Source: a virus. From it: DNA of 47,374 nt. The stretch is from IMG/VR virus record IMGVR_UViG_3300032770_000004, positions 1 to 47,374 of that record; one strand, given 5' to 3'. Position numbers and translations under genes: made by a program. Positions 1 through 18,566 of the stretch are shown here, one piece after another. The notes below the pieces were generated by a model. It was not told the DNA's origin, did not search any database, and saw only the letters and a program-made list of their open reading frames with translations. Every line of letters begins with the position of its first letter. The stretch's first letter is position 1.

Positions 1-2
1 AT

Positions 3-164
3 CCAGATGGCGAGACCATCATCGATACGTACCCTGAAGAACACGAAACTCGGCCTGATACAATGATGGAGGAGCATCAAGCGCTGACTACTATGAGAGT
101 AGCCTCTGAAAATCTCAGCTTGCTTGACAAGAAGCTCCTTAGACTGAAGGGAGTACGTATATGA
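3..164 (+). CDS. C-terminal fragment of a possible phage sigma-factor-like protein (5' end outside window)
   Basis: Frame-3 translation PDGETIIDTYPEEHETRPD...LSLLDKKLLRLKGVRI* resembles sigma70 region 3.2-4.1; its stop overlaps the next ATG (ATGA). Confidence 0.4.
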   Translation, partial: PDGETIIDTYPEEHETRPDTMMEEHQALTTMRVASENLSLLDKKLLRLKGVRI

Positions 165-445
165 GTTATTCGTGTGTAAAGGGAAAGATTGCAGTTGAAC
201 CATTTAACGATACTGCTGTCAAAACTACGGCCATGGGAGGCGGTACAGTGAAGGTCGGAATGATTGTTCAAAAGAACGAGCTAGCTCGTCTGAAGGTGAT
301 TTTCCCCAGCTTCGAATTGTCGGGGAGTTATGTACACGTGCCTTCCGAGTACTATACCCAACCATACGCCAAAAAGATTTACGAGATGGACGGTCAGAAG
401 TTCATCATCATCCCTCTTAACATCGTCGAGATTGTAGAGTACTAA
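161..445 (+). CDS. GroES-like co-chaperonin
   Basis: 94 aa; IAVEP..KTTAMGG..; C-terminal YEMDGQKFIIIPLNIVEIV resembles the GroES/Cpn10 end. Confidence 0.5.
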   Translation: MSYSCVKGKIAVEPFNDTAVKTTAMGGGTVKVGMIVQKNELARLKVIFPSFELSGSYVHVPSEYYTQPYAKKIYEMDGQKFIIIPLNIVEIVEY

Positions 446-1422
446 TGAACTCCCTCCTCCTAGTGGGAGATCCTCACGTAACCGTTGAAGAAATCCCCGA
501 CTGTAACAGGCTTATCGATTGTATTCTAGACGTACTTGGCAAAGTTCCTGTCAAAGGTGTTGTCTTTTTGGGCGACCTCCACCACAACCATGCGCTTGTG
601 CGTATCGAGGTCATGGAGTTCTGGCGTAAGGCCTTTCATCGCATCAAACTCGCCTTTCCAAACATCAACATCTATGCGTTGGTGGGTAACCACGACAGAA
701 GCCATGACTACAGCGTAAAGGCTAACGCTCTACAGTCCTATGCGATTGACGTGATTCAGAGTCCATCTGAAATCATGCGTGGCGTAGTCGCTGCACCTTG
801 GTATCCGGATCCATCCAGCTTCTTGAAGGCACTTGATGGCCAACAAGGCAAGACACTGATTTGTCATCAGACATTCGATGGCAGCAAATACGAGAATGGC
901 TTTTTCGCTAGTGACGGTGTGGATCCAGCGCTTGTCCAATTCGACAACGTAATTGCTGGCCACATCCACGCTCCTCAGATTGTTGGTAAGGTTTGGTACA
1001 TCGGAGCACCTCGATGGAGGATCGCCAGTGATGCTAATACCCCGAGAGCACTATGGGTTTTCGATTTTGACGATGATGGAAATATAGTTGGACGAAAGCC
1101 ATTTCCGACCAGTGGCTGGTGTCGTGAAATATGGCATCTTGTTGACAAAGAAGAGGATCCAATTGAAGTTACTAGGCCAGAAAAGGGAATCTTAAGAGTA
1201 GACATTCATGGATCCGCCGAATGGGTCGAGGCAAAGAAGGCTAAATGGGAGGCGGTTGGGGCACGTGTCGCCACCTTTCCGGTTGTGGCTCGTTCCAGTT
1301 TGGTGAGAGAATCGGAGGGTATCTCCGTGGCTCTTTCTAAGTTTGTGGATGTCTGGGTACCTAAGTACGGTACTTCAATTGACCAGCTCAAGAAGATGGT
1401 CGCAGAGAGAATCAATGTCTGA
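445..1422 (+). CDS. Metallophosphoesterase, Mre11/SbcD/gp47-like recombination nuclease
   Basis: Motifs GDPH, LGDLHH, GNHD, CHQT, GHIH. Confidence 0.85.
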   Translation: MNSLLLVGDPHVTVEEIPDCNRLIDCILDVLGKVPVKGVVFLGDLHHNHALVRIEVMEFWRKAFHRIKLAFPNINIYALVGNHDRSHDYSVKANALQSYAIDVIQSPSEIMRGVVAAPWYPDPSSFLKALDGQQGKTLICHQTFDGSKYENGFFASDGVDPALVQFDNVIAGHIHAPQIVGKVWYIGAPRWRIASDANTPRALWVFDFDDDGNIVGRKPFPTSGWCREIWHLVDKEEDPIEVTRPEKGILRVDIHGSAEWVEAKKAKWEAVGARVATFPVVARSSLVRESEGISVALSKFVDVWVPKYGTSIDQLKKMVAERINV

Positions 1423-1801: not shown

Positions 1802-2396
1802 AAAGCTTGCGTTGCTATCGGACTTAGAACGCGAAGCTTACGATAAGGTACTGACGTATCCGCCGCTGTCGCCAGTGACGGCAGCGAAGTTCTTTGGCTT
1901 ATTCCTTCAGGGTTATGGGTGTGTTGACATCGCTCGTACCAATCCAGAATTCGGCTCCCTCGCTCTTGGTCTGATTGTACGAGCACGTGTTGAATACGAT
2001 TGGGATACTGAACGTGATGTTTACATCAGGACCATGATGGAACTGATTCGTGTCAAGACCGAGAAGGCAACGTTGGAGGGGATCCAATTCGCTAGTGATG
2101 GTATGGCTGTTTTTCACAAGCTAGTGGGAGATAAGTTTCGCAGGTTCATTCAGACAGGCAACGAAGAAGAACTTGGTGAATTCAAGCATATGAGCTTCAA
2201 GACCTACAAGGAGTTTGTTCAAATCTTCACCAAGCTGACTGGTAAGGATCAAATTGTCATTCCTAGTGCCGAACTTGATTCTCAGGATGGCCCCAAGAGC
2301 GAGCTAAAGGTCGCCTCCTCTGAAGACAAGCCGGTTACAGCCGAAACCGCCGAAGACATGTTCAAGCTTCTTAGCTCGGTGAAGGTAAAGTCGTAA
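1779..2396 (+). CDS. Hypothetical protein, candidate terminase small subunit
   Basis: 205 aa, helical, directly upstream of and coupled to TerL. Confidence 0.5.
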   Translation: MEKLSLDKKLALLSDLEREAYDKVLTYPPLSPVTAAKFFGLFLQGYGCVDIARTNPEFGSLALGLIVRARVEYDWDTERDVYIRTMMELIRVKTEKATLEGIQFASDGMAVFHKLVGDKFRRFIQTGNEEELGEFKHMSFKTYKEFVQIFTKLTGKDQIVIPSAELDSQDGPKSELKVASSEDKPVTAETAEDMFKLLSSVKVKS

Positions 2397-4357
2397 TGGC
2401 TCTTGAGATGCTGTCTGATACTGAGAAACTGCGACGCAGGCTTCTGTTTGTGCCGTGCGAAACCCGAGAGCATCTCAGGGCGTGGATCAAGGAATATCTT
2501 GGTATCGATTTCCCAGATTGTACGGTCAGCGACGAATCCAACAGCAACCCACTCGATAACATTTGGGAGGCGTATGATCGTCTCCGACGCAATGACGTAA
2601 TTGGATTTTCACGTGTGATGGCATACGCCAATCGTGGAGGCTTCAAAACTCTCGGCGCCTCGGTGCTTGAAGTCATGGTCGTGCTCCACCTACGTCGCAA
2701 TGTCGCTCACATGGCTGCTACTCTTGAGCAGTCTTCTGCTTCACAGGAGTATGTGAAGAACTTCTTCAACATTCCCATCATCCAACAATTCGTAGCAGCC
2801 CAGGCCGAAAAACACGTCCGCGTAGTGCGCTTTCAACATAAGGTCACCGGCTATTGTATCACCAAGACGGAATACGGAACGCTCTCTCTTGCTGACAAAA
2901 AGAACTACGTTCGCATTGAGAACTACATCAAGATTGTCGCCTGTACGATGCAGGGCGCCAACTCTAAGCACGTTGAATTTTTCGTTGTTGACGAGGTAGA
3001 CGTCGTCGCTCCTCAGAACGTAAAAGCCTACCAGCAGGCCAAGAATATTCCGGATCCGCGAGACGGAATGCTTCCTCTCACGTTGATGGTCTCTACTAGA
3101 AAGTCACGCACTGGCTTGGTACAGCGTGAAATCGACGAGGCAGAGCATACGAAGCTCCAGTTGCGTCACTGGAACATTATCGACACTACAGAAGCATGTA
3201 AGCCAGAGCGCCACAAGCCCGACTTACCGCGTCAGACATACTACATAAATGATGGCGATGTGAAACACATCACCAAAGAAGAGTATGACATCCTGAATCC
3301 TGCCGAGCAGAAAAAGTACTATCCAACCGAGGGATTTGCTGGCTGCCGTGGATGTCGTCTGTTTGCTGCCTGCAAGGGTCGTCTGGCTACCCATCAGAAG
3401 TCGACCTCTCCGATGCTTAAGCCCATCGAAGATGGCATCGCTAAGTTTCAAGGCGCTCCCAGCCCTGAGTTCATCATCACAGAGTATCTTTGCCGTAAGC
3501 CTGACACCAGCGGTCTAATCTATCCGCGCTTCAACCGCGAGAAGCATATGATTTCTACGGCTCAGATGGCCGAACTAATCACAGGCGATCCAATGCCTCA
3601 GGTAAAAGATAAGGCAGCTCTCTTGGCGCTTATGAAGCTGAAGGGCGCTGAGTTCTATGTTGGTATGGACTTCGGTTTCTCTCACAACTTCTCTGTCGTC
3701 ACTTTTGCTGTTTACGGCCAGTATGCTTTCGTAATCGATGTGTTCTCACAAGCCGGTCTAGAACTGGATGACAAAATCCAGGCATGTGAATATCTCAAGA
3801 CGGTTTATGACAATCCGATGATCTATCCTGATCCTGCTTATCCTGCTGACATTAAGACCTTTCGACGTAAGGGCTTTAAGGTGAAGGAATGGGATAAAGG
3901 CAAGGATTCGGTCAAGGCTGGCATCGAAATCGTGCGCACGCTTCTGTGGAGCGGTAAGAATGCCATTCGTCTCTATCTCATCAAAGAAGATCCAGGTTGC
4001 GAGCTACTGGCTAGTCGAATGGAAAAGTACAAGTTCACTATGGATGCAGCTGGTCTATATACGGATGTTCCAGACAAGACCGAGGACGACGAATGCGATG
4101 CCATTCGATATGGTATCATGAATGTCTTCGGTTCGAAGGGTGCTCTGAAGGTTCAGACAGGTGCTGCCATTGTGGTGGATGAATCTGGGAAGGTCAAGCA
4201 AGTAGCGTCAAATCAACAGCCGGGCCAGCAACAGGATTGGATGACACAAATGATTCGTCAGGCAGTTGGTGGTGGTGGCACAGACAGCAATGATCAGACG
4301 GATAGTAAAGTGCCACCAGCACAAATCAAAAAGGGTCGGTTCTTCTCCGACCTGTAA
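2396..4357 (+). CDS. terL: Terminase large subunit
   Basis: Walker A ANRGGFKT, Walker B FFVVDE, coupling motif VST, RNase H nuclease VGMDFG ... YPDP ... DDECDAIRY. Confidence 0.92.
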   Translation: MALEMLSDTEKLRRRLLFVPCETREHLRAWIKEYLGIDFPDCTVSDESNSNPLDNIWEAYDRLRRNDVIGFSRVMAYANRGGFKTLGASVLEVMVVLHLRRNVAHMAATLEQSSASQEYVKNFFNIPIIQQFVAAQAEKHVRVVRFQHKVTGYCITKTEYGTLSLADKKNYVRIENYIKIVACTMQGANSKHVEFFVVDEVDVVAPQNVKAYQQAKNIPDPRDGMLPLTLMVSTRKSRTGLVQREIDEAEHTKLQLRHWNIIDTTEACKPERHKPDLPRQTYYINDGDVKHITKEEYDILNPAEQKKYYPTEGFAGCRGCRLFAACKGRLATHQKSTSPMLKPIEDGIAKFQGAPSPEFIITEYLCRKPDTSGLIYPRFNREKHMISTAQMAELITGDPMPQVKDKAALLALMKLKGAEFYVGMDFGFSHNFSVVTFAVYGQYAFVIDVFSQAGLELDDKIQACEYLKTVYDNPMIYPDPAYPADIKTFRRKGFKVKEWDKGKDSVKAGIEIVRTLLWSGKNAIRLYLIKEDPGCELLASRMEKYKFTMDAAGLYTDVPDKTEDDECDAIRYGIMNVFGSKGALKVQTGAAIVVDESGKVKQVASNQQPGQQQDWMTQMIRQAVGGGGTDSNDQTDSKVPPAQIKKGRFFSDL

Positions 4358-5376: not shown

Positions 5377-7452
5377 ATGTCGAAGAAGAATCGTATTGAC
5401 ATCGGCGCGCTAAGCCCCTTCCAGCAGGAAGTGATTCGTTCCGTTATTGGCGGTAGTAGCCCGACACCTCAAGGAGAAAAGAGGCGTGTAAGTGTTGCTT
5501 TTGCGGATCCATTCTTCGTTGGTTCTTCTGGTGGCGCTCCACTAACTAAGGCCGATACTCAAGCCCATCAAGAAGCCGTTAGCAACAGTGACCCGCTTGT
5601 AAAGTCCATCCTCAACGTCCTCAATGGTCCTGGTGATAGCATTGAACGCCTTGCCTTCCAGGTAAGCCCCTATACTCAGAACACGTATGGCGGCCTATGG
5701 AAGCGCAAGCTTCGTCTACTGCCTGACGAAATTTTGAAGCGCGTTTCGATTCAAGACGACCTTGTCGCCGCTGTTGTCAATACGCGTAGCAACCAAATTG
5801 CAGCCTTTGGTCGTCCACAGCCGGATCGCTTCAGCACCGGCTTCAAGATTGAACCAGAGCCAGGATACACTGAGCACCTTACTTCCGAGCAGAAGCGCGA
5901 GCTTCAGAACAAGATTGCCGATGTAGAGGCACGTCTCCTTACGTGTGGTGAGACTAAGGGTTGGAACGACGAAGACGCTCTTGGCTTCGGACACTTTCTT
6001 TTCATGTCGGCACGCAATGCTGTAGTGTTCGGTAGGATTGCCACAGAAATCATTCATGTTGATACTCCTGGTGGTCGCAAGTTCCACTCGTTTAGGCCTA
6101 TTGACGCCGGAACCATCTATCGCGCTGCTCCTTACAAGAATGCAGCAGAGCAGGTACGTAGAAATGCTTTGCACATGTTGGAGCAGATCAAGAACAAGAA
6201 ACTTCAGCCCGAACGTTACGTTGCTGATGAATACACTTGGGTCCAGGTGATTGATGGTCGTCCGGTACAGGCCTTTACGAGCGAGGAATGTGTAGTCCAC
6301 AACTTCTATCCAACTACGGATGTCGAGCTTGATGGTTATCCCGTTTCGCCTCTAGATACGGTAATCACAGCTGTCACTACGCACATCAATATCGGTGTTC
6401 ACAACAAGCTTTATTTCCAGTCTGGCCGCGCTGCCCGAGGAATGATTGTCATCAAGTCTGATGACATTGATGAATCCATCACTGGATTTATCCGTCAACA
6501 ATTCAATGCCTCTATCAATAGCGTCGGCAACGCCTGGAGAATGCCTATCTTTGGTATTGGAACTGATGATGATGTGGGTTGGTACCCCATCGACAACAGT
6601 AGCCGTGACATGGAATTCCAGTACCTCAGCGACACCAATGCTCGTGTGATTCTTTCCGCATTCCAAATGTCGCCTGAAGAACTTCCTGGATATGCCCACT
6701 TGTCGCGCGGTACTAACAACCAAGCGCTCAGCGAATCCAACAACGAGTACAAGCTCGAAGCTCACCGTGATGTCGGTATTCGTCCGTTGATCGCACAGTT
6801 CCAGAACTTCATCAACGCCACTATCATGCCGTTGATTGCTCCGGAGCTTGCAGATTTCTGCCACTTCAAGTTTGTTGGTCTTGACGTAGACACTGCCGAG
6901 AAAGAAAGCACCCGCCTCCAGCAAGACATGGCCATTCACATGAACATGGACGAAGTACTGGAGAAGGTTGAGAAGAAGCCAGTGGGTCAGCGTTGGGCTG
7001 GTCAATTCTTGCTCAATCCCCAATGGGCTGCCGTTCTCGACAAGTACTTCCTGGTTGGCGACATCATGGAACACTTCTTTGGCATCAAAGGTGCTTCGCA
7101 GGATCCGCGCTTCCAGTTTGTTAACAACCCGATGTGGTTCAATTGGCAGCAACTCATGCAACAGCAACAGCAGATGGAGCAACAGCAACAGCAACAACAG
7201 ATGCAAGCTCAGCAGCAACAACAGATGCAGCAGCAACAGGGTCAAGAGGAACAGGGCGACCTTTCTCAGGGTGTAGACCAGCTTCACGGGCAGCTCAGTA
7301 AAGGCGAGAAGCAGCTCACTCCTAGTCGCAAGGCCCTATTGGCTCATGAACGCCGCATCCTCAAGAATGTACTGAAGGGTTTTGAGGAAGACGTGGCTAA
7401 GGCCACCGAAGACATTCTAGATGCAGCCGATGGACATTTGCCGGAGGAGTAA
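5377..7452 (+). CDS. Portal protein
   Basis: Position after terL; portal-like segments (RPIDAGTI, YPVSPL, NKLYFQSG, RDMEFQ, SAFQMSPEELPG, GIRPLI); C-terminal poly-Q. Confidence 0.88.
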   Translation: MSKKNRIDIGALSPFQQEVIRSVIGGSSPTPQGEKRRVSVAFADPFFVGSSGGAPLTKADTQAHQEAVSNSDPLVKSILNVLNGPGDSIERLAFQVSPYTQNTYGGLWKRKLRLLPDEILKRVSIQDDLVAAVVNTRSNQIAAFGRPQPDRFSTGFKIEPEPGYTEHLTSEQKRELQNKIADVEARLLTCGETKGWNDEDALGFGHFLFMSARNAVVFGRIATEIIHVDTPGGRKFHSFRPIDAGTIYRAAPYKNAAEQVRRNALHMLEQIKNKKLQPERYVADEYTWVQVIDGRPVQAFTSEECVVHNFYPTTDVELDGYPVSPLDTVITAVTTHINIGVHNKLYFQSGRAARGMIVIKSDDIDESITGFIRQQFNASINSVGNAWRMPIFGIGTDDDVGWYPIDNSSRDMEFQYLSDTNARVILSAFQMSPEELPGYAHLSRGTNNQALSESNNEYKLEAHRDVGIRPLIAQFQNFINATIMPLIAPELADFCHFKFVGLDVDTAEKESTRLQQDMAIHMNMDEVLEKVEKKPVGQRWAGQFLLNPQWAAVLDKYFLVGDIMEHFFGIKGASQDPRFQFVNNPMWFNWQQLMQQQQQMEQQQQQQQMQAQQQQQMQQQQGQEEQGDLSQGVDQLHGQLSKGEKQLTPSRKALLAHERRILKNVLKGFEEDVAKATEDILDAADGHLPEE

Positions 7453-8228
7453 TGGCGAAGAATGTACGCCTATCCCCGACAGCCCTTAAGCTGATCGACA
7501 AGGCAGTAGACCTACTCTTTGAACGCGCTAAGGCTCGTCTTTTGGGCCCTGGCGCTCACAAGATGTATGCCCGCAAACAGCTTGTCTTGAAGCTCAATCC
7601 TAAGGATACCTTGACCGGTCTCTATCGCCAAGCTTCTCAATTCGAAGGCATGGATCCAAAAGAGAATGTCATGAAGGGCCTTCTTCGAATCGCAGGTTCA
7701 TATCTCGACGCGACGAAGGAAAAGACCAAAGCCAAAGTTCAGCACTCTGTACAGAGCTTTCTGACTGACGCTATCGCTCAAGGAATCAAGACTGACGCAC
7801 GTACAGTTCTAGGAGGCCAGCTCGCAGAGCTTTGGGGTGACGTCAAAAAGGATGTACGTCGTATCGTCGAGACAGAGACTACAGTAGTACGAAACACCAG
7901 CATCTATGATGCTATCGGCAGAATGTCGGCGCTTGATGGCGTAGAAGATCCAACCGTCTTCTTCGTAACCGTGCGTGACGATGTGCGCTGTGATGAATGT
8001 ACCCGCCTCCACCTTCTCCCAGACGGGACAACGCCTCGTGTTTGGAAGCAATCAGAATTAGGATCCGGATACCATAAAAAAGGAGACCCGAATCCGAAGA
8101 TCGCGGGTCTCCATCCCCACTGCCGTTGCGTTCTTACGGTTCTAATGCGTGGTTACGGTTTTGATTCTGGTGGAATGGTAACTTACAAAGAACCTGACTG
8201 GGACGAATACAAGCATCAAAGGGAATGA
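7452..8228 (+). CDS. Head morphogenesis protein (MuF / SPP1 gp7 family)
   Basis: RIVETET, DDVRCDEC and HPHCRC motifs; follows portal. Confidence 0.85.
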   Translation: MAKNVRLSPTALKLIDKAVDLLFERAKARLLGPGAHKMYARKQLVLKLNPKDTLTGLYRQASQFEGMDPKENVMKGLLRIAGSYLDATKEKTKAKVQHSVQSFLTDAIAQGIKTDARTVLGGQLAELWGDVKKDVRRIVETETTVVRNTSIYDAIGRMSALDGVEDPTVFFVTVRDDVRCDECTRLHLLPDGTTPRVWKQSELGSGYHKKGDPNPKIAGLHPHCRCVLTVLMRGYGFDSGGMVTYKEPDWDEYKHQRE

Positions 8229-9156: not shown

Positions 9157-9810
9157 ATGAAGCCCGTTAACTCACTAAACGAAGAATTTTTCGAGCAAAT
9201 AGATTCAGAAGAAAAGGCTTACTGGCTTGGATTTTTACTGGCGGATGGTGGGGTTAGTCGGAATCAACTTACCGTTTCTTTGGCGATCGAAGATGGGCTC
9301 CATGTTGAAAAGCTTCGTAGTGCTCTCGGTTCTGATGCTCCTCTCAAGAGAATTACCTTTAACAATGCGTGGAAGTCTAAGGATCAAATTCGTCTTGTTA
9401 TCAAGCGAAAGGCTATGGCTGTTCGGCTAGCCAAATGGGGTATCGTTCCAAACAAGATGTTGTATGGCTGGGTACCGGAGCTGCCAAGACCTCTTCAAAG
9501 GCACTTCTGGCGGGGAGTATTTGACGGTGATGGGTACATTTCCATAATGGTTTCGAGGAACGAGGTTGGAATTGGTCTTTGCGGTAACCTTAAGACTATG
9601 GAAGCGTTTGTTGAATTTCTTGGAAAAACACTAGGATTCAGGCCCACAATCCATCCCATTCCAAAGAGAGATGGAGGAGATCCTGTTTGCTTTCGAATCG
9701 TCATCTCTGGGAAAGCAAAGCCCATCTCGGTACTTAGAGTTCTTTATGGTGCTTCGACACTGTACCTGGATCGTAAGGCACGTAAGGTGCATCAGTTAGG
9801 AGTTCAATAA
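9157..9810 (+). CDS. Free-standing LAGLIDADG homing endonuclease
   Basis: Two motifs: YWLGFLLADG and FWRGVFDGDG. Confidence 0.9.
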   Translation: MKPVNSLNEEFFEQIDSEEKAYWLGFLLADGGVSRNQLTVSLAIEDGLHVEKLRSALGSDAPLKRITFNNAWKSKDQIRLVIKRKAMAVRLAKWGIVPNKMLYGWVPELPRPLQRHFWRGVFDGDGYISIMVSRNEVGIGLCGNLKTMEAFVEFLGKTLGFRPTIHPIPKRDGGDPVCFRIVISGKAKPISVLRVLYGASTLYLDRKARKVHQLGVQ

Positions 9811-12800
9811 ATGTCAACAGGATTGCTTTTGGATGGAGTTTTTGCTTCTGAGCATATCGATAGCTCTGGCGAGATCTTGGATATCAAAGGCCTAGACATC
9901 ACGGATTTTGACGAGGGCAAAGGTCTTGCTAATTACGAGCACAAAGGTCATGATGGCAATTCTAACGGAGAAGAGATTGTCGGCAAGATAATTTTCGCTC
10001 GCAAGATTTTCAAGCAATCTGATTGTACCAACGAACGGGAGAAGATGTTCTGGGACAAAGTTGGCTTGCCTTTTCTCTATGGTATTGTCCGTTTGTATGA
10101 TGGAGCGGGCCATGAAGGAGCAAAAGCTCTTGCGGCCATCATTCGTGATAGTCACGCCAATGACGAGCCTATCATTGTGGGTTTCAGTATCGAAGGATCA
10201 ACATTAGAGAAAGATTCCAAGACCAATCGATTAGTTCGATGTATTGCACGCAAGGTTGCGCTGACAGTACGTGCTTGTAACAAGATGGCAATTTCCGGCC
10301 TCCTTGCGGATCCAAATGCACCAGAAGGCTACGAGAAATTCCCAGTAAAGCCCGACCTACTTGCTATGGTACCAGTCGCCAAACAGACTATTGCTAAAAA
10401 GTCTGAAGCTGATCCGATGTACATACGTCTTGGCGGAAGTGAAGCCGTCTATGGTTCGGAAATCACCAAGGCCATGACTGCTGGCAGTTACAATGCAGCT
10501 CCTGGTACTTTGAGTGGCGGGGCTGCTCTTCAGGTCGAAGACCGTACACGTAAGGCTCTTGCCATGGCAGCTCTGCGAGATTGGGACAAAGTTACACCTT
10601 TCCGTAAGTTCATCAAGCACCGTATGCCTGATGCCAGCGACGAATTCCTTGACCACTTCTCGGACCTTGTGGAGCGTCACATGTTCCGTGTCAAGAAGGC
10701 AGAAGAAGTCATCACCTCATTGGCAAAGGCTGGCAAACTCAAGTCACCTCGTGAAGCTGGTATCGCAGCTAAGCCCAAGGAAGAGCCGCGCCTTACCATT
10801 CAGGGTCGCGCTGTGCCGAAGTCGATGGTCACCAAAACCACGTTCGATCCAAAGAGTGGACAGCTCTTCACGCCAAAGGGTATCTTTCAGGCTCAGACTC
10901 CAAGCGCAGTTCACCCGCATCTTGCTCGTCACATGCGAGCAAATGGAATGGATCCTTCGCGGTCGGGCCAACTCTTCGCCAATGAAGTTGCCAAATCACG
11001 TGACGCTCACAAACGCGCTATGAATAACTGGTTCAATGTGAATCAGAAATTCGTAAACGGCAATATCGACCCGGGTCTCGTTAGCCACGCGGTCGCATTC
11101 GCTCTGATGTCTCCTGGTGTTCCTGTACCTATGCAGGAAACCATGTACGGCCACTTTGTCGACTCCCTTAAGAGTCGAGGTCTTGCCAGCATCGTCAATC
11201 CAAAGGATTGGGATGCTGTCTACAAGGATTGGATGGCTCGCAACCGTTCTGGTCTTCCTCAGCATAGCCGCCAGCACTTCTTGGATCTCGAAAAAGAAAT
11301 CCGCTCAAAGAACGGCGCCTTCATCGGGTTCAACAAGCCAGATAAATTTGCGGAATACTTTTCTGGTTATTTGAAAGATCATCACAATGACATTGTTGAT
11401 GCCATTCGACAGGCTAAGGGCGATGCCCATCCTGTTGCCCGCCGCCTTACTGAGGTTCGTGGTATCGCTCCTAAGCTTTCTCGTTATCTTCTCGGCATGA
11501 TGGGCGCCGGTAACATGGTTGTTCCTGATACACACTTTACTCGCCATCTGTTTGGCGCTCGCCCCGATGCTCCAGGTTCGCAGCCCGGCTCAAGTCCAGA
11601 CTCTGAATCGCAGAACTATCTGAAGCACGCTCTCCTTGGCACTGGCGGCGCTCACGACGTTCTCGAAGGAATCGATGATTGGTATCTTCGCAATCATGAT
11701 GCAGTGAAGCATCTACTTGCGGATCCAGAAATGGGTCCATACTTCAAGGGTCGCGAGAATCAAGCAATCTTCCCCGCCTTCTGGTCACACTGGATTAGCA
11801 TTCCGGGTCACGAAGCGGCAGTTGGAACTCCTAACCGTTGGGCACAGAATGCAGGTACTGACCATGCGCCCTTCTGGGATGCCGTAGCTCCGATGCTTCA
11901 AAAGAGCGAGAACTACGATGCTGACCTGCCTATGCGTACTGCCATGCAACATCGCCGCTGGGTAGAACAATACGGCCCCGTCCACGCATTGGGCCTCTAT
12001 TACCAGTATCTTGTACCTCGTCTCCAGGCCAACGATGCTTTGCGTGGCCAAGAAATGGTTCGCAAGTTCCAGTCGATTGATGTCGACCTTCGAAAGGCTG
12101 TACGCGAATCAACAACTCCTAATGAAGAGCGCCAGCCTGAGCGGGTGAAGTTCCGTGGCCATACAGTCTCGCCTGGAGAAATGTTCCCACACAAGGATCG
12201 CTCTAAGCGCTTTTCGGTTCTGGGCACTGATCCAAAAGAGTTCACAGTAGTCCCATCCGAAAAGCTACACAGCTATACCCATCAGGATATGCTCAGGATT
12301 CCACGAGCTGAAGCTGGTGACTACCGTATTCTTCGTTACCCTGAAACGCTTGAAGAGCCTCTGGTGGTGAACGCCCTGACACATGGTGTTGGTGAATACA
12401 ATACCCATCCGGAAGTACAGAACCTTGTACACGGCTTCAATTTTGGTTATCCCAAGGAGTCCGCTCTTCAAGGTAGTCGAGCAGAAACTTCTTTCTGGAG
12501 CAAGACTCCTAATGGCCAGCGTGTCTACGTGAAGGCCGCTCCTGAAGAGGGTTCCTTTAACGAAGCCCGCAAGGAAGGTGTTTACTCTGCTCTTGCTCGT
12601 GAATACTTCGGCCTAGGCAAGTACGTGCCTCGTGTCGGAGTAGTGCGCCATCCTAAGACTGGACAGGAACATGCCATCATCGAGCACATGCCTGGAGAAG
12701 AGTTTGCGCCTGAAGATCCAGCACACGAAGGCGTACTCAATAGACTCAACGATTCCGGTGAACTAGATAAGCTGGGTCTCATGGACATGATTATGGGTAA

Positions 12801-13209
12801 CTCCGACCGTAGCAATGAGAATTACCTAGTGGATCCAGAAAACAACACTCTTCGTCTGATTGACCACAACATTCTTTTTGACAACGCTCCTCGTCATACG
12901 GCAACTCCAATGTATTGGTCAGACCACGAGATGAGCAATATGATTCCTTTGGATTCTTCACAGCTACATCCTGCCGCAGTTCAGTGGGCACACTCCCTTA
13001 AGCCTGATGAGCTAGAATCTATGTTGCGCCGTTACGAGGTTCCAGACGAGCTGGTACAAGGAACTAGAAGGAGACTTGAAAAACTTCAGGGACATTTGAA
13101 GCATCGACCGAATTCTGATCGCGAATCTGCGTGGGTGATTCCACAGGCCCTAGCAGACATGCCTGATGACATTCAAGCAAAGTACTCCAATGAACCGGAG
13201 AAAGAATGA
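9811..13209 (+). CDS. Prohead protease fused to HhH-GPD glycosylase-like and PI3/4K/HipA-like kinase domains
   Basis: N-term FASEHIDSSGE..NYEH..GFSIEG..VALT (HK97-type protease); EVRGIAPKLS..VVPDTHFTR (HhH-GPD); VYVK..E..GNSDRSNENYL..LIDHN (kinase). Confidence 0.8.
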   Translation: MSTGLLLDGVFASEHIDSSGEILDIKGLDITDFDEGKGLANYEHKGHDGNSNGEEIVGKIIFARKIFKQSDCTNEREKMFWDKVGLPFLYGIVRLYDGAGHEGAKALAAIIRDSHANDEPIIVGFSIEGSTLEKDSKTNRLVRCIARKVALTVRACNKMAISGLLADPNAPEGYEKFPVKPDLLAMVPVAKQTIAKKSEADPMYIRLGGSEAVYGSEITKAMTAGSYNAAPGTLSGGAALQVEDRTRKALAMAALRDWDKVTPFRKFIKHRMPDASDEFLDHFSDLVERHMFRVKKAEEVITSLAKAGKLKSPREAGIAAKPKEEPRLTIQGRAVPKSMVTKTTFDPKSGQLFTPKGIFQAQTPSAVHPHLARHMRANGMDPSRSGQLFANEVAKSRDAHKRAMNNWFNVNQKFVNGNIDPGLVSHAVAFALMSPGVPVPMQETMYGHFVDSLKSRGLASIVNPKDWDAVYKDWMARNRSGLPQHSRQHFLDLEKEIRSKNGAFIGFNKPDKFAEYFSGYLKDHHNDIVDAIRQAKGDAHPVARRLTEVRGIAPKLSRYLLGMMGAGNMVVPDTHFTRHLFGARPDAPGSQPGSSPDSESQNYLKHALLGTGGAHDVLEGIDDWYLRNHDAVKHLLADPEMGPYFKGRENQAIFPAFWSHWISIPGHEAAVGTPNRWAQNAGTDHAPFWDAVAPMLQKSENYDADLPMRTAMQHRRWVEQYGPVHALGLYYQYLVPRLQANDALRGQEMVRKFQSIDVDLRKAVRESTTPNEERQPERVKFRGHTVSPGEMFPHKDRSKRFSVLGTDPKEFTVVPSEKLHSYTHQDMLRIPRAEAGDYRILRYPETLEEPLVVNALTHGVGEYNTHPEVQNLVHGFNFGYPKESALQGSRAETSFWSKTPNGQRVYVKAAPEEGSFNEARKEGVYSALAREYFGLGKYVPRVGVVRHPKTGQEHAIIEHMPGEEFAPEDPAHEGVLNRLNDSGELDKLGLMDMIMGNSDRSNENYLVDPENNTLRLIDHNILFDNAPRHTATPMYWSDHEMSNMIPLDSSQLHPAAVQWAHSLKPDELESMLRRYEVPDELVQGTRRRLEKLQGHLKHRPNSDRESAWVIPQALADMPDDIQAKYSNEPEKE

Positions 13210-13562
13210 TGGCTACTTCAAGAGCGTACTATCAGCGGAATAAAAAAGCCATCCAAGCCAAAAACGCTGAACGATACAAGAAAAATCGTGAGCGCTACTT
13301 GAACATCACCCTAGTGGCTCATCGTCTACGCAAGTACGGTGTCACCAACGATCAGTATGAGACAATGAAAAGGGATCAGGAAGGCCGTTGCGGAATTTGT
13401 CGAAAAGTGCCTACTGAAACTCTTGAAATAGATCACAATCACACCACTGGCAAGGTACGTAAACTTCTTTGTAAGCGCTGCAATCTCATGATTGGTTACG
13501 CGCTAGAATCCCCCGAAACTCTACGTAACGCTGCCGCATATTTGGAAGGCCACAATGGCTAA
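13206..13562 (+). CDS. Endonuclease VII-family HNH nuclease
   Basis: KYGVT..Y..M...Q.GRCGIC..IDHNHTTGKVRKLLCKRCN. Confidence 0.88.
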   Translation: MMATSRAYYQRNKKAIQAKNAERYKKNRERYLNITLVAHRLRKYGVTNDQYETMKRDQEGRCGICRKVPTETLEIDHNHTTGKVRKLLCKRCNLMIGYALESPETLRNAAAYLEGHNG

Positions 13563-14685
13563 TGAAAACATTTATTACTGTTTCGGAGTTCATCCCCAGC
13601 CCAACGGGGAGATCCATCACACCCTAAAAGGAAAGTTTTTCTTGCGCGATGGACACTTAAGCGTGCTTGAGGACCATGGTCTAGCTCGTGGCATTGATTT
13701 AGAGAAGGTGCCACCTGCTGAAGCTGCTGCTCGTATCCGCAGAATGACCCATAGCCAGAGACGCATGGTGGTGAATGGAGAAGACCTACGTCAAGGCCTA
13801 CATCCTGACCTTTTGGCAACAACTGAGAAACCGCGCGTGATTCCGGGCGACCTTCGAGAAGCCATGGGCAAACAATTCAAAGACCCAGATGATCAGGTCG
13901 CAATGTACGACTACCATCGACATGGCATGCCTGGACCGCAGGTTCTTGAAATCCACGGCTCGAAGGCTTATCTTGATGGACACGAAGTTTCACCGGAAGA
14001 ACTAACAGCGATCATGTCCAACGTCAAGGCCGGGAAAGCCGAAGTACGACACTCACTAGCAAAACACGAAGGCCTGGAAAAGATTGAACCAGACCTAGCG
14101 AATGCGCTTGGCCATGTGCGCTCGGCGGTACAATCAGGTCACGTTCCTCCTGAGGCATACAAACAGCTATCTCGTAGTTTATTTACCGACACGCTGGTGC
14201 CTACTGTCGGAAACAGAAAGGCGTATCAAGATTTTTTGTCAAGACCAAAAAATGGAATCCACGTTCGAATTGACATGAACGATTTTGGTGATGTCAATAA
14301 AGTTCATGGCCATGAAACAGGTAATCAGGCTATCATTGCTGCGTTTCGAGCCGCACGTGAGGCTGCGGATGAGTCCGTAGGCCGTAAAAATGCAAAGCTT
14401 TTTAGGATCGGCGGCGATGAAGGACATCTATTTGTTCCATCTACCGAGCATGCAGCTTCTTTTGCCCGCGCATTTCGTGCCAAGCTCGAAGCAATTCCTT
14501 CGATTCGTGGAACTCATAGCCTAAGCGCAAGCATTGGCTATGGGCGTACGCCACAGACAGCGGAGGAAGCTCTTATTCAGGCAAAGACCCAAAAGAAGGC
14601 TGGGCTTCATCCGAAAGGTCAAGCGCCGAGCTATGTTCAGGCACATCCTGAATTGCTGCCGCCGCAGCTTTCCTTGAAAGGCTGA
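13555..14685 (+). CDS. GGDEF-domain (diguanylate-cyclase-like) protein
   Basis: TDTL..GNRKAY, RIDMNDFGDVNKVHGHETGNQAI, FRIGGDEG, LSASIG. Confidence 0.82.
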   Translation: MANENIYYCFGVHPQPNGEIHHTLKGKFFLRDGHLSVLEDHGLARGIDLEKVPPAEAAARIRRMTHSQRRMVVNGEDLRQGLHPDLLATTEKPRVIPGDLREAMGKQFKDPDDQVAMYDYHRHGMPGPQVLEIHGSKAYLDGHEVSPEELTAIMSNVKAGKAEVRHSLAKHEGLEKIEPDLANALGHVRSAVQSGHVPPEAYKQLSRSLFTDTLVPTVGNRKAYQDFLSRPKNGIHVRIDMNDFGDVNKVHGHETGNQAIIAAFRAAREAADESVGRKNAKLFRIGGDEGHLFVPSTEHAASFARAFRAKLEAIPSIRGTHSLSASIGYGRTPQTAEEALIQAKTQKKAGLHPKGQAPSYVQAHPELLPPQLSLKG

Positions 14686-16088: not shown

Positions 16089-17141
16089 ATGGCAAAGACT
16101 AATTTCAAAGACGAAGAGCTTCGCAGTGTCATTGCAGAAATGGCAGAACAGCTCGAAGGCGCATGGCAGACCTCAAAGCAGGAATTGCTCGCAAAGGCAG
16201 TTCCCGAAGAGTCTGACGACAAGGCGCCTGTAGATCCTAGCTCGTCGGATTCGTCTGCTCCCGCTTCGGACCCTGCTACCGCTGGTCCTGGCCCTGATGC
16301 TGGCGATGCTTCTGCTGCTCCTGCATCGGATGCCTCTGCTCCTGCAAGTGCGGATCCTGCCGCCGATGCAGCCCCACTGACTCCTGAGGCTCTACAGGCT
16401 GAGTATTCTCAGCTCGCGCCCGAGGAACTCGATATGCACATCAAGGCCGCTCTCGCTGCCAAGGAAGCTCTCGCTGCTTCGGCCTCGGCCGTTGCTCCTG
16501 ATGCTGCCTCGGCGGGCGCTCCTCCGATGGCTATGAAGGCTGAAATCGGTGGTCATGAGACCAGCGAGTCGGCTGTTTCGGAAGACACTGTCGATAAGGG
16601 CGAATGGAGTGAATCTTCTTCGTCGTCCGTTGGAAAGGCTGAAATCGGTGGTCATGAGACCAGCGAGTCGGCTGTTTCGGAAGACACTGTCGATAAGGGT
16701 GAGATGAGCGAATCGTCTTCTTCTTCGTCGTCCGTTGGAAAGGCTGAGCTGATTTCTTCGCACAAGAAGGCATCGGGTGGCCAGATGGTCAAGAAGTCTG
16801 AAAAGGCTGTTGATCCTCGCGACGCTAAGATTGCTGAGCTTGAAAGTCTTGTTAAGACCCAAGCCGGAGACATCCAGAATTTGACCAGCGCTGTGAAGAT
16901 GGTTCTTGAACGCCCCGAGCGCAAGGCTATCACCACAATCGCCGCTCTTTCGAAGCACGAAGCGCCCGACCAGGGCAAGAAAGAGTTCACTGCTGCGGAA
17001 GCGCGCGAGTACATTACCTCGCTCGCCCCGCGACTCAACAAGGCTGAGCGCGAACTAATGTTCGACTTTTACGGTGGAAAGGTAAAGGCCGACAAGCTCG
17101 CTCCCATCTTTGAGAAGTACAACGCCTCACCCAAGAAGTAA
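16089..17141 (+). CDS. Capsid scaffolding protein
   Basis: Acidic, low-complexity and coiled-coil; directly upstream of capsid gene; internal repeat. Confidence 0.7.
   Translation: MAKTNFKDEELRSVIAEMAEQLEGAWQTSKQELLAKAVPEESDDKAPVDPSSSDSSAPASDPATAGPGPDAGDASAAPASDASAPASADPAADAAPLTPEALQAEYSQLAPEELDMHIKAALAAKEALAASASAVAPDAASAGAPPMAMKAEIGGHETSESAVSEDTVDKGEWSESSSSSVGKAEIGGHETSESAVSEDTVDKGEMSESSSSSSSVGKAELISSHKKASGGQMVKKSEKAVDPRDAKIAELESLVKTQAGDIQNLTSAVKMVLERPERKAITTIAALSKHEAPDQGKKEFTAAEAREYITSLAPRLNKAERELMFDFYGGKVKADKLAPIFEKYNASPKK
16536..16747 (+). repeat. In-frame tandem repeat (99/105-bp units) in scaffold gene
   Basis: KAEIGGHETSESAVSEDTVDKGE-x-SESSSS-VG repeated; units start at 16536 and 16635, partial at 16740. 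Confidence 0.9.
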
Positions 17142-17171: not shown

Positions 17172-18566
17172 ATGATCGGATCTGAAGTTACACAGGCTCT
17201 GCTTAAGGCACTCGAAGCAGGCTCTTACAATGCCGCCCCCCAGACCCTGGTTCAGGGCTCTTCGCTGCAAATCGAGGATCTCTCGGGCGTGATGCAGCTG
17301 GTCACTTTTGATGACTCGCACATCAAGCTCCAGAAGATGCTTAAGGTCGAGTCTTGCAAGAGCACTCTTGCTCAGTTCGATCGTCAGCTGAGCTACGGTA
17401 TCTTTGGTGGTTCTGCCCAGCAAGAAGGTGCAGTTGGACAGGAAGAAGACAGCCAGTTCGTACGTATCGTGGTCCCCATGGCCTTCTACTCGCACGTTCG
17501 TCGTGTGACTGTAGTTGCCAACATGGTTCAGACCGTCGATGGTGTGAAGGCTGAAGACCGTGCCGCTCGCGACGCTGCTATCAAGCTCTCGGCTGATATC
17601 GAATTCGACCTTTTCCGTGGAAAGGCCGACTTCAGCAACGCAGGCGTGTTCGACGGTAACATGAGCGTAATTCCCGCTCTGCCCAACATTCTCGGTCTGG
17701 ATGCCCAGATTCGTATGTCGGACAGCGAGCGCAACGCTCAGGACTTGATGTTCGCAGAGTACGGCTCGTCTCAGACTGCCGTCACCCAGGTTGGTTCGAC
17801 TCTGACCCAGGATGCTATCGAAGACTCGCACGTCAAGAGCACCATGCAGCACGGTAACGCTGATCGCCTCCTGGTTGATCCTCTCGTTCTGTCTGCATAC
17901 AACAAGATTTCGTTCGGTAAGGAACGCATCGTTCTCGCTGGTTCGCCTCAGGACGCTACGTCTGCTGAACTGAAGCGCCAGTGGGTGTCTGGTGGTACTG
18001 TTTCGATTGAAGCCTCGCGCTTCCTCTCGGGCAAGACCTCGCCTGCTGCTCCTCGCTCCAATGGTCCCGGTGCCTGTGTTTCGGCTGTAGGCGCTAACTC
18101 GCCTGCCGGTACTTCGCTCGGAGCTGGTGCGTATTACTACGCCGCTACCGCCGTGAATGAACTGGGTGAAAGCCCGGCCGTGTTCAGCTCGGTAGTGAAC
18201 GCTTCCGCCGGAGATCAGGTGCAGTTGACCATTACTCCTCCTGGTTCGGGCACTGTGCGTTACTTCAACGTGTACCGCACCAAGGCTGGTGGTGCTGCTT
18301 CGAGCGCCAAGTTCATCGGTCGTATTGCTAACTCCGGTTCGGCAACTACCGTGTTCGTCGACTTGGGCAACAAGCTCCCTGGCTTCGTCACTGGATTCCT
18401 CGTTCAGGGTGACACTATGGCGATGAAGGAACTCTCTCCTTACAGCCGCATGAAGCTCGCTGTTACGGATCTCAGCCTGCCTGAAGCGCACTTCCGCTTC
18501 TGCACTCTCGCCGTAATGCAGCCCCGCAAGAACGTCCTTCTGGACAACCTCATCGGCGCGTTCTAA
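17172..18566 (+). CDS. Major capsid protein (HK97 fold) with FN3/Ig-like insertion
   Basis: 464 aa, highly biased codons, strong SD; N-term KALEAG..SLQIEDL like SPO1/Twort-type capsids; YYYAATAVNELGES..YFNVYRT insertion; followed by terminator. Confidence 0.85.
   Translation: MIGSEVTQALLKALEAGSYNAAPQTLVQGSSLQIEDLSGVMQLVTFDDSHIKLQKMLKVESCKSTLAQFDRQLSYGIFGGSAQQEGAVGQEEDSQFVRIVVPMAFYSHVRRVTVVANMVQTVDGVKAEDRAARDAAIKLSADIEFDLFRGKADFSNAGVFDGNMSVIPALPNILGLDAQIRMSDSERNAQDLMFAEYGSSQTAVTQVGSTLTQDAIEDSHVKSTMQHGNADRLLVDPLVLSAYNKISFGKERIVLAGSPQDATSAELKRQWVSGGTVSIEASRFLSGKTSPAAPRSNGPGACVSAVGANSPAGTSLGAGAYYYAATAVNELGESPAVFSSVVNASAGDQVQLTITPPGSGTVRYFNVYRTKAGGAASSAKFIGRIANSGSATTVFVDLGNKLPGFVTGFLVQGDTMAMKELSPYSRMKLAVTDLSLPEAHFRFCTLAVMQPRKNVLLDNLIGAF

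Follow-up and report, generated by a model that had tools for sequence, protein, structure and literature searches.

The viral record IMGVR_UViG_3300032770_000004 of the IMG/VR database, a complete sequence of 169,962 bp with terminal repeats and a G+C content of 50%, represents an Mx1-like phage of ~170 kb. Its first 47 kb (positions 1 to 47,374, hereafter the window) contain, between the portal gene and the gene encoding the major capsid protein (MCP), an uninterrupted open reading frame (ORF; 9811..13209, plus strand) for a protein of 1132 amino acids (aa). A first-pass annotation, prepared from the DNA sequence alone, had described the product as a prohead protease followed by glycosylase-like and kinase-like cargo, and the ORF and every sequence feature quoted in it are present. 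More than 100 full-length homologues were found, mostly from viral contigs of 160–177 kb. With moderate confidence, we regard the protein as a modular polyprotein whose N-terminal ~200 aa constitute a head-maturation serine protease. The protease is followed, in this order, by an MCP-like flexible segment, a helical linker, an HhH-GPD domain, a helical-hairpin spacer, a small beta domain and a kinase (Table 1).

Domain organisation of the 1132-aa protein

A full-length AlphaFold model, generated with 51 homologues as input and reaching a predicted local distance difference test score (pLDDT) of 85, was aligned to 48,161 PDB representatives using VIA-align. Residues 331–765 were additionally modelled alone (pLDDT 90.4). 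The low-confidence stretches of the full-length model (residues 181–244, 308–323, 698–700 and 768–775) separate confident domains, and the per-domain structural check by AlphaFold and Foldseek suggested in the first-pass annotation recovered both the HhH-GPD and the kinase folds. PDB profile searches conducted with the full-length and N-domain profiles yielded only a marginal match to PI4K2B (E 0.45) and neither a protease nor a glycosylase; the domains are identified at the fold level only.

The N-terminal domain (residues 1–154) superimposes on the T4 gp21 protease (5jbl) with a Z score of 10.9 and a root-mean-square deviation of 2.2 over 123 aligned residues, and also matches the varicella-zoster virus (VZV) protease (Z 9.4). 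It therefore displays the assemblin-like beta-barrel fold of MEROPS clan SH, whose prohead proteases include families S77 (T4 gp21) and S78 (HK97). H44 and S126 are invariant in both a 51-sequence and a 32-sequence alignment, and 24 of the 32 N-domain homologues, taken from diverse loci, match phrog_1028, annotated as 'head maturation protease' (best E 2.2e-12). The domain had initially been termed an HK97-type protease. Its designation as a prohead protease, with the T4 gp21 fold and phrog_1028 as support, holds; the HK97 label is unproven at the sequence level, since the Pfam S77 and S78 profiles are not matched and the best structural match is T4 gp21.

The middle domain has the two-lobed, all-helical architecture of HhH-GPD enzymes and aligns with the Thermotoga 8-oxoguanine glycosylase Tm1821 (3n0u) over 206–207 of 209 residues, with a Z score of 15.4–15.5. 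In the ranking obtained with the middle-domain model, positions 1 to 22 are all occupied by members of the HhH-GPD superfamily (Z 15.4 down to 7.2), including Ogg2, EndoIII, Mag1, OGG1, MagIII, AlkA, ROS1, NTHL1, MutY, MIG, AGOG and a queuine-salvage enzyme. After rank 22 comes a discontinuity: the subsequent matches are generic helical hairpins that align with residues 697–765 only. Foldseek likewise placed six Ogg2 enzymes at the top, with probability 1.00 and with Tm1821, SsOgg and MjOgg first. The HhH-GPD signature that had been noticed in the sequence, G551-x3-K555-x17-D573-T-H, aligns with residues 113–144 of the E. coli endonuclease III, Nth (hhalign, E 0.0088). In this alignment, K555 corresponds to the Schiff-base lysine K120 and D573 to D138, with identical spacing. 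K555, D573 and H575 are invariant in the 51-sequence alignment; across the first two alignments K555 is invariant, 27 of 28 further sequences have a lysine at this position, and D573 is invariant. The retained lysine suggests a bifunctional glycosylase/lyase that would nick DNA. When profiles were searched exhaustively, no sequences were reached outside the phage family, which comprises about 219 protein clusters; by sequence, the domain is thus a branch of the HhH-GPD superfamily that is restricted to phages and strongly diverged, with an identity of only 9–16% to known enzymes. The idea of a glycosylase directed against host DNA while the phage DNA is shielded is unsupported, as neither ThyA-type hydroxymethylase nor TGT/DpdA genes, the only two families searched, were found in the phage genome.

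In at least nine relatives (P0019, P0021, P0043, P0052, P0053, P0059, P0060, P0085 and P0099), an intein or intein-sized insert of 180–385 aa lies within this domain, exactly at the position equivalent to Y446/G447 and following a conserved ETMY; the protein in the window has no intein. The two proteins scanned, P0019 and P0021, both matched PF14890, below its gathering score, and show typical terminal blocks, including an HNF...SN/S end. Homing elements prefer conserved sites in important genes, and the location of the intein thus fits selection acting on the enzyme. Glycosylase-type domains also occur away from the protease: at residues 888–1329 of a 2933-aa protein (P0185), in a nearly stand-alone protein of 448 aa (P0235), and in a 1000-aa ORF at locus L051, where a kinase is located about 9 kb away.

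The C-terminal domain (residues 854–1119) aligns with the type II phosphatidylinositol 4-kinase PI4KII-alpha (4pla) over 240 residues with a Z score of 19.2, followed in the ranking by CtkA, Fam20, HipA/HipT and CotH, and Foldseek matched it to 4hne (E 7.6e-5). The original assignment as a PI3/4K- or HipA-like kinase is thereby substantiated, and the motifs on which it was based are situated at residues 905–908 (VYVK), 996–1006 (GNSDRSNENYL) and 1017–1019 (IDH). The domain contains the ATP-binding lysine, a D-R-x-x-x-N catalytic loop and the metal-binding aspartate of the kinase fold, and K908, E922, D999, N1004 and D1018 are invariant in the 51-sequence alignment. Moreover, its catalytic loop, N-S-D-R-S-N-E-N-Y-L, is close to that of PI4K2B in the PDB profile alignment. 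The protein itself scores 25.4 bits against Pfam PF00454, below the cut-off of 27.1 bits, and its relatives P0105, P0083, P0022, P0018 and P0019 score 27.5–34.1 bits.

Candidate cleavage sites, module exchange and neighbouring genes

Residues 213–244 of the protein resemble the N-terminus of the MCP (aa 1–36), with 58% identity (BLASTP, E 1e-7), and this N-terminus is the sole other copy of the segment in the genome (tblastn, E 3e-9). The pairing of polyprotein and MCP through a shared segment recurs in most related loci. A general capsid-targeting tag was considered and rejected, given that the MCP-like segment (beyond the MCP), the linker helices, the junction and the beta domain have no other genomic copies.

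The shared segment contains a lysine followed by alanine both in the polyprotein (K220↓A221, the arrow marking the candidate scissile bond) and in the MCP (K11↓A12). The first-pass annotation had proposed that L-x-K-[A/S] sites separate the domains, naming SLAKA (aa 303–307), MLQKS (aa 695–699) and DLRKA (aa 759–763). When the broader motif hydrophobic-x-K-[A/S/G] was tested, it proved to be conserved in only four windows of the protein, at K220 (46/51 homologues), K296/K306 (42/51), K698 (36/51) and K762 (37/51), compared with a mean of about 0.10 for random windows. The motif is often retained while the neighbouring sequence and its exact position drift among homologues, and all four sites fall within, or at most 6 residues from, stretches with pLDDT below 50. 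Three helices (245–257, 264–271 and 277–306) precede the disordered residues 308–323 and form a linker that is kept in every architecture described below. Furthermore, a junction helix of the RKFE..L..LRK↓A type, ending in L-R/K-K↓A/S, precedes the kinase or the GGDEF module in every architecture.

Among 120 homologous proteins and 74 viral loci, the constant part consists only of the N-terminal protease and the linker (about residues 1–320), with the N domain kept in 67 of the 74 loci. The cargo domains vary among homologues, a point that the first-pass annotation had suggested checking: five architectures were found, in which protease and linker are followed by glycosylase and kinase, by glycosylase and GGDEF protein, by the kinase, or by the GGDEF protein, or in which the protease carries unrelated tails. 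In the glycosylase-kinase architecture, a GGDEF gene lies immediately downstream. In others (for example L012, L014, L016, L018, L026 and L031), the glycosylase and the whole GGDEF protein are fused in frame and there is no kinase within 10 kb; both halves of the GGDEF protein are inside the protease ORF at these loci and at L032, L041, L046 and L047. The GGDEF fusion sits behind the junction helix, in the place of the kinase. The kinase is the only cargo at L037, L038, L042, L043 and L065 and in P0074 and P0093, and the GGDEF protein is the only cargo at L041. A distant clade (L053–L074) keeps only the protease domain of ~165 aa, followed by tails of 250–1000 aa; in Pfam searches of ten of these tails, the only match came from the L074 protein, which ends in DUF6321 (E 2.6e-12).

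The polyprotein gene is flanked by two free-standing nuclease genes, the stop and start codons at each border overlapping or abutting. The upstream one encodes a LAGLIDADG homing endonuclease and abuts the polyprotein start codon. The downstream one encodes an endonuclease VII-type nuclease and appears to have been inserted between a pair of coupled genes, because the GGDEF gene directly follows the polyprotein in relatives. A weakly MuF-like gene directly after the portal gene may encode an additional head-associated carrier, of the MuF type. The gene just ahead of the MCP gene encodes an acidic, low-complexity protein of 350 aa, rich in Ala, Pro and Ser and containing the internal repeat EDTVDKGE..SSSVGKAE twice, which is probably the scaffold; no family match was found for it. 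The MCP itself contains an inserted segment (aa 305–405; 18084–18386) that has a match of its own to phrog_19622 ('esterase/lipase', E 2.8e-8) and a weak one to a head-closure family, and may be a surface insertion domain.

Table 1. Features of the polyprotein gene and its neighbours, with window coordinates and the basis of each assignment
Feature	Position	Residues (aa)	Strand	Basis
Large terminase	2396-4357			
Portal	5377-7452			
Weakly MuF-like gene	7452-8228			PF04233 E 0.0019 (below cut-off); several 'head morphogenesis' PHROGs
LAGLIDADG homing endonuclease	9157..9810		+	PF14528 E 9.4e-9; phrog_4645 E 7e-43
Prohead serine protease domain, assemblin/T4 gp21 fold	9811..10320	1-170	+	Fold match; phrog_1028; invariant H44/S126
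Disordered protease tail with conserved K197↓S-E and RLGGSE motif	10321..10446	171-212	+	pLDDT <50 over 181-212; consensus
MCP N-terminus-like segment, candidate site K220↓A221	10447..10542	213-244	+	BLASTP to MCP
Three-helix linker ending in candidate sites K296↓A and K306↓A	10543..10731	245-306	+	Model; conservation
HhH-GPD DNA glycosylase/apurinic-apyrimidinic (AP) lyase-like domain, closest to Ogg2 type	10894..11865	362-685	+	VIA-align; Foldseek
Intein point of relatives, Y446/G447	11146..11151		+	Comparison with P0019, P0021
Helix-hairpin-helix, Gly/Pro loop and Asp signature with K555 and D573	11452..11547	548-579	+	hhalign to Nth
Candidate cleavage site K698↓S699	11902..11907		+	pLDDT dip at 698-700 between two helices
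Helical-hairpin spacer and junction helix ending in candidate K762↓A763	11905..12114	699-768	+	Generic helical-hairpin matches only
Small beta-rich domain ahead of kinase	12145..12369	779-853	+	Strands predicted at 779-842; conserved together with kinase module
PI3/PI4-kinase-like (type II PI4K-like) kinase domain	12370..13167	854-1119	+	VIA-align; Foldseek; Pfam in relatives
Endonuclease VII-type nuclease	13206..13562		+	PF02945 E 8.8e-23
GGDEF protein	13555..14685		+	PF00990 E 7.8e-8
Presumed scaffold	16089..17141		+	Motif sites; immediately upstream of MCP gene
MCP	17172..18566		+	phrog_752 E 5e-44; 61% identical to Mx1 MCP

Proposed loading of the cargo and alternative explanations

The polyprotein gene is located in the head module, and the order portal-polyprotein-MCP is the same as in Mx1. 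We consider it somewhat probable that the glycosylase and the kinase are loaded into the prohead as part of the protease fusion, set free by self-cleavage at K↓A/S sites and ejected with the DNA. The protease would join the prohead core and carry the attached enzymes inside, possibly docking through the mimic of the capsid N-terminus (aa 213–244). Once activated, it would cut the MCP, the scaffold and itself at K↓A/S sites, giving predicted polyprotein fragments of about 1–220, 221–306, 307–698, 699–762 and 763–1132. The freed glycosylase and kinase would then remain associated with the phage DNA and reach the next host when it is ejected; there, the former would act on DNA and the latter on some protein or lipid target. 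According to the first-pass annotation, the ejected enzymes might serve to counter host defence or take over the host.

Several observations weigh against this reading. At the profile level, hhalign detected only a weak local match between the N domain and T4 gp21 (residues 88–114 only, E 0.099), Pfam Peptidase_S77/S78 was matched neither by the protein (E ≤ 1) nor by the N domains of the 32 relatives (E ≤ 0.1), and no match to Pfam PF00730 was found for the glycosylase domain at E ≤ 1. In addition, the genome contains a second protease gene of the ClpP family (96744–97202, plus strand), outside the window and far from the head module, which is a caveat to viewing the N domain as the sole maturation protease. 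The product of this gene, at 96.7 kb, could be the true maturation protease and the N domain a peptidase dedicated to processing a polyvalent effector protein: the ClpP-type gene matches PF00574 with 55 bits as well as ClpP-type 'head maturation protease' PHROGs, and assemblin-like peptidases occur in polyvalent proteins (PMC5512222). We nevertheless hold this explanation to be very improbable, since about 80 kb separate the ClpP-type gene from the head module and the N domain is found in the canonical portal-capsid position as the one constant part of the related loci. Furthermore, many large phages carry auxiliary ClpP genes.

On the same side stands the motif count: the protein contains 7 sites against 3.95 expected (p = 0.11), which is not above chance. 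The presumed scaffold also contains 7 sites, against 2.0 expected (p = 0.004, uncorrected), and this enrichment, like that of the portal, fails correction for 182 ORFs. The proposal that L-x-K-[A/S] sites separate the domains is supported by their conservation at predicted boundaries and not by their number; the argument for cleavage rests on conservation and placement because the count is not significant. An alternative is that the protein remains uncleaved, with the protease acting in trans on capsid and scaffold proteins only, and the tail serving as a structural core or spacer of the large head. Besides the motif count, this would find a precedent in polyvalent proteins of the N4 vRNAP type, which are packaged unprocessed (PMC5512222). 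Against such an alternative, which we regard as improbable, the motif is conserved at no place in the protein other than the four flexible boundaries, and a tail that is dispensable and replaceable among relatives does not suit a structural core.

The GGDEF gene, finally, is separate in this phage and has no junction element, which indicates that fusion is not required for GGDEF function. It could be argued on this basis that the enzymes act in the producing cell or within the prohead rather than being delivered; fusion would then do no more than tie their production to the expression of late head genes, and after assembly they would be degraded and expelled like scaffold fragments. The position of the gene within the late head operon is in agreement with this explanation, and so is the lack of a base-modification gene, within the two families searched, to protect the phage DNA from a co-packaged glycosylase. 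Moreover, mature heads normally retain neither prohead proteases nor scaffolds, as established for T4 and HK97. We consider non-delivery unlikely, although somewhat less so than the absence of cleavage. The conservation of catalytic residues in all three cargo types, together with the intein in the glycosylase domain, points to selection on enzyme activity. An obligate fusion to a protease that is active only inside proheads, maintained across five architectures, is hard to explain unless the prohead is the destination.

Loading into the prohead, self-cleavage and ejection may extend beyond this phage. More tentatively, and with real doubt, we propose that the prohead protease acts as a general and evolvable cargo loader in a clade of ~130–175 kb phages. 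Any enzyme placed behind a junction helix and a K↓A site would be packaged, freed and injected; the glycosylase, the kinase, the GGDEF cyclase and the other tails would represent an exchangeable effector arsenal, with the MCP mimic providing the docking. If true, this would also provide a straightforward principle by which foreign proteins could be packaged into the capsids of these phages.

Comparison with known systems

Phages are known to inject a small number of proteins together with their DNA, and the selection and loading of this cargo are understood only for a handful of model systems. In the present case, the maturation protease itself would do the loading, with natural module swapping behind a recognisable junction. 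The best-known parallel is the T4 prohead core, in which the internal proteins IPI-III and Alt are placed, trimmed at a short consensus by gp21 and ejected with the DNA. The gp21 protease fold is common to both systems (5jbl, Z 10.9). In T4, the cargo proteins have genes of their own and bear a short targeting peptide at the N-terminus, and gp21 cleaves after Glu; the polyprotein, by contrast, links its cargo covalently to the protease, and its candidate sites come after Lys.

Among isolates, a homologue was found only in the Myxococcus phage Mx1. Its protein WNM70322.1 (OR576727.2), annotated as 'putative prohead protease', is an orthologue with 33% identity over 97% of the length and lies in the same gene order. 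Unlike the polyprotein described here, it is annotated as a protease only, the fused domains are not mentioned in the Mx1 genome announcement, a further myxophage paper is silent on the protein, and a nucleotide cyclase gene is located one small ORF away from the protease gene. The question of delivery is thus directly testable in a cultivable relative growing on Myxococcus xanthus, a social and developmentally complex host in which three activities, namely DNA base excision or nicking, a PI4K-like kinase and a nucleotide cyclase, may act early in infection.

Regarding the individual enzymes, the glycosylase domain shares the HhH-GPD fold with the Ogg2-type 8-oxoguanine glycosylase/lyases (Tm1821, 3n0u; SsOgg, 3fhg; MjOgg, 3fhf) and endonuclease III, as well as the 18-residue Lys-Asp spacing of Nth. 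It differs from them in its low identity (9–16%), in insertions of about 115 aa and in an N-terminal beta element. The kinase domain has the fold and the catalytic loop N-[ST]-D-R-x-N-x-N-[YW]-L in common with the type II PI4Ks (PI4KII-alpha, 4pla/4hne), CtkA, HipA, CotH and Fam20, but it is phage-encoded, much smaller and preceded by a beta domain.

The nearest concept is that of the polyvalent proteins (Iyer, Burroughs, Anand, de Souza & Aravind 2017, PMC5512222), which likewise combine several unrelated effector-type enzyme domains in one phage polypeptide with a virion-associated domain, a proposed processing peptidase and domain shuffling. The protein described here shares the defining traits of that class, as it contains at least two effector-type domains and a virion-linked domain in a variable architecture. 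In polyvalent proteins, assemblin-like peptidases are rare and 'always' C-terminal (PMC5512222), whereas here the peptidase is N-terminal and apparently the phage's own prohead protease, and the carrier is not MuF. Neither a glycosylase nor a PI3/4K-type kinase is mentioned in that study (0 occurrences). What distinguishes the present system is therefore an N-terminal prohead-protease carrier, junctions after Lys, and a cargo of glycosylase, PI4K-like kinase and GGDEF modules.

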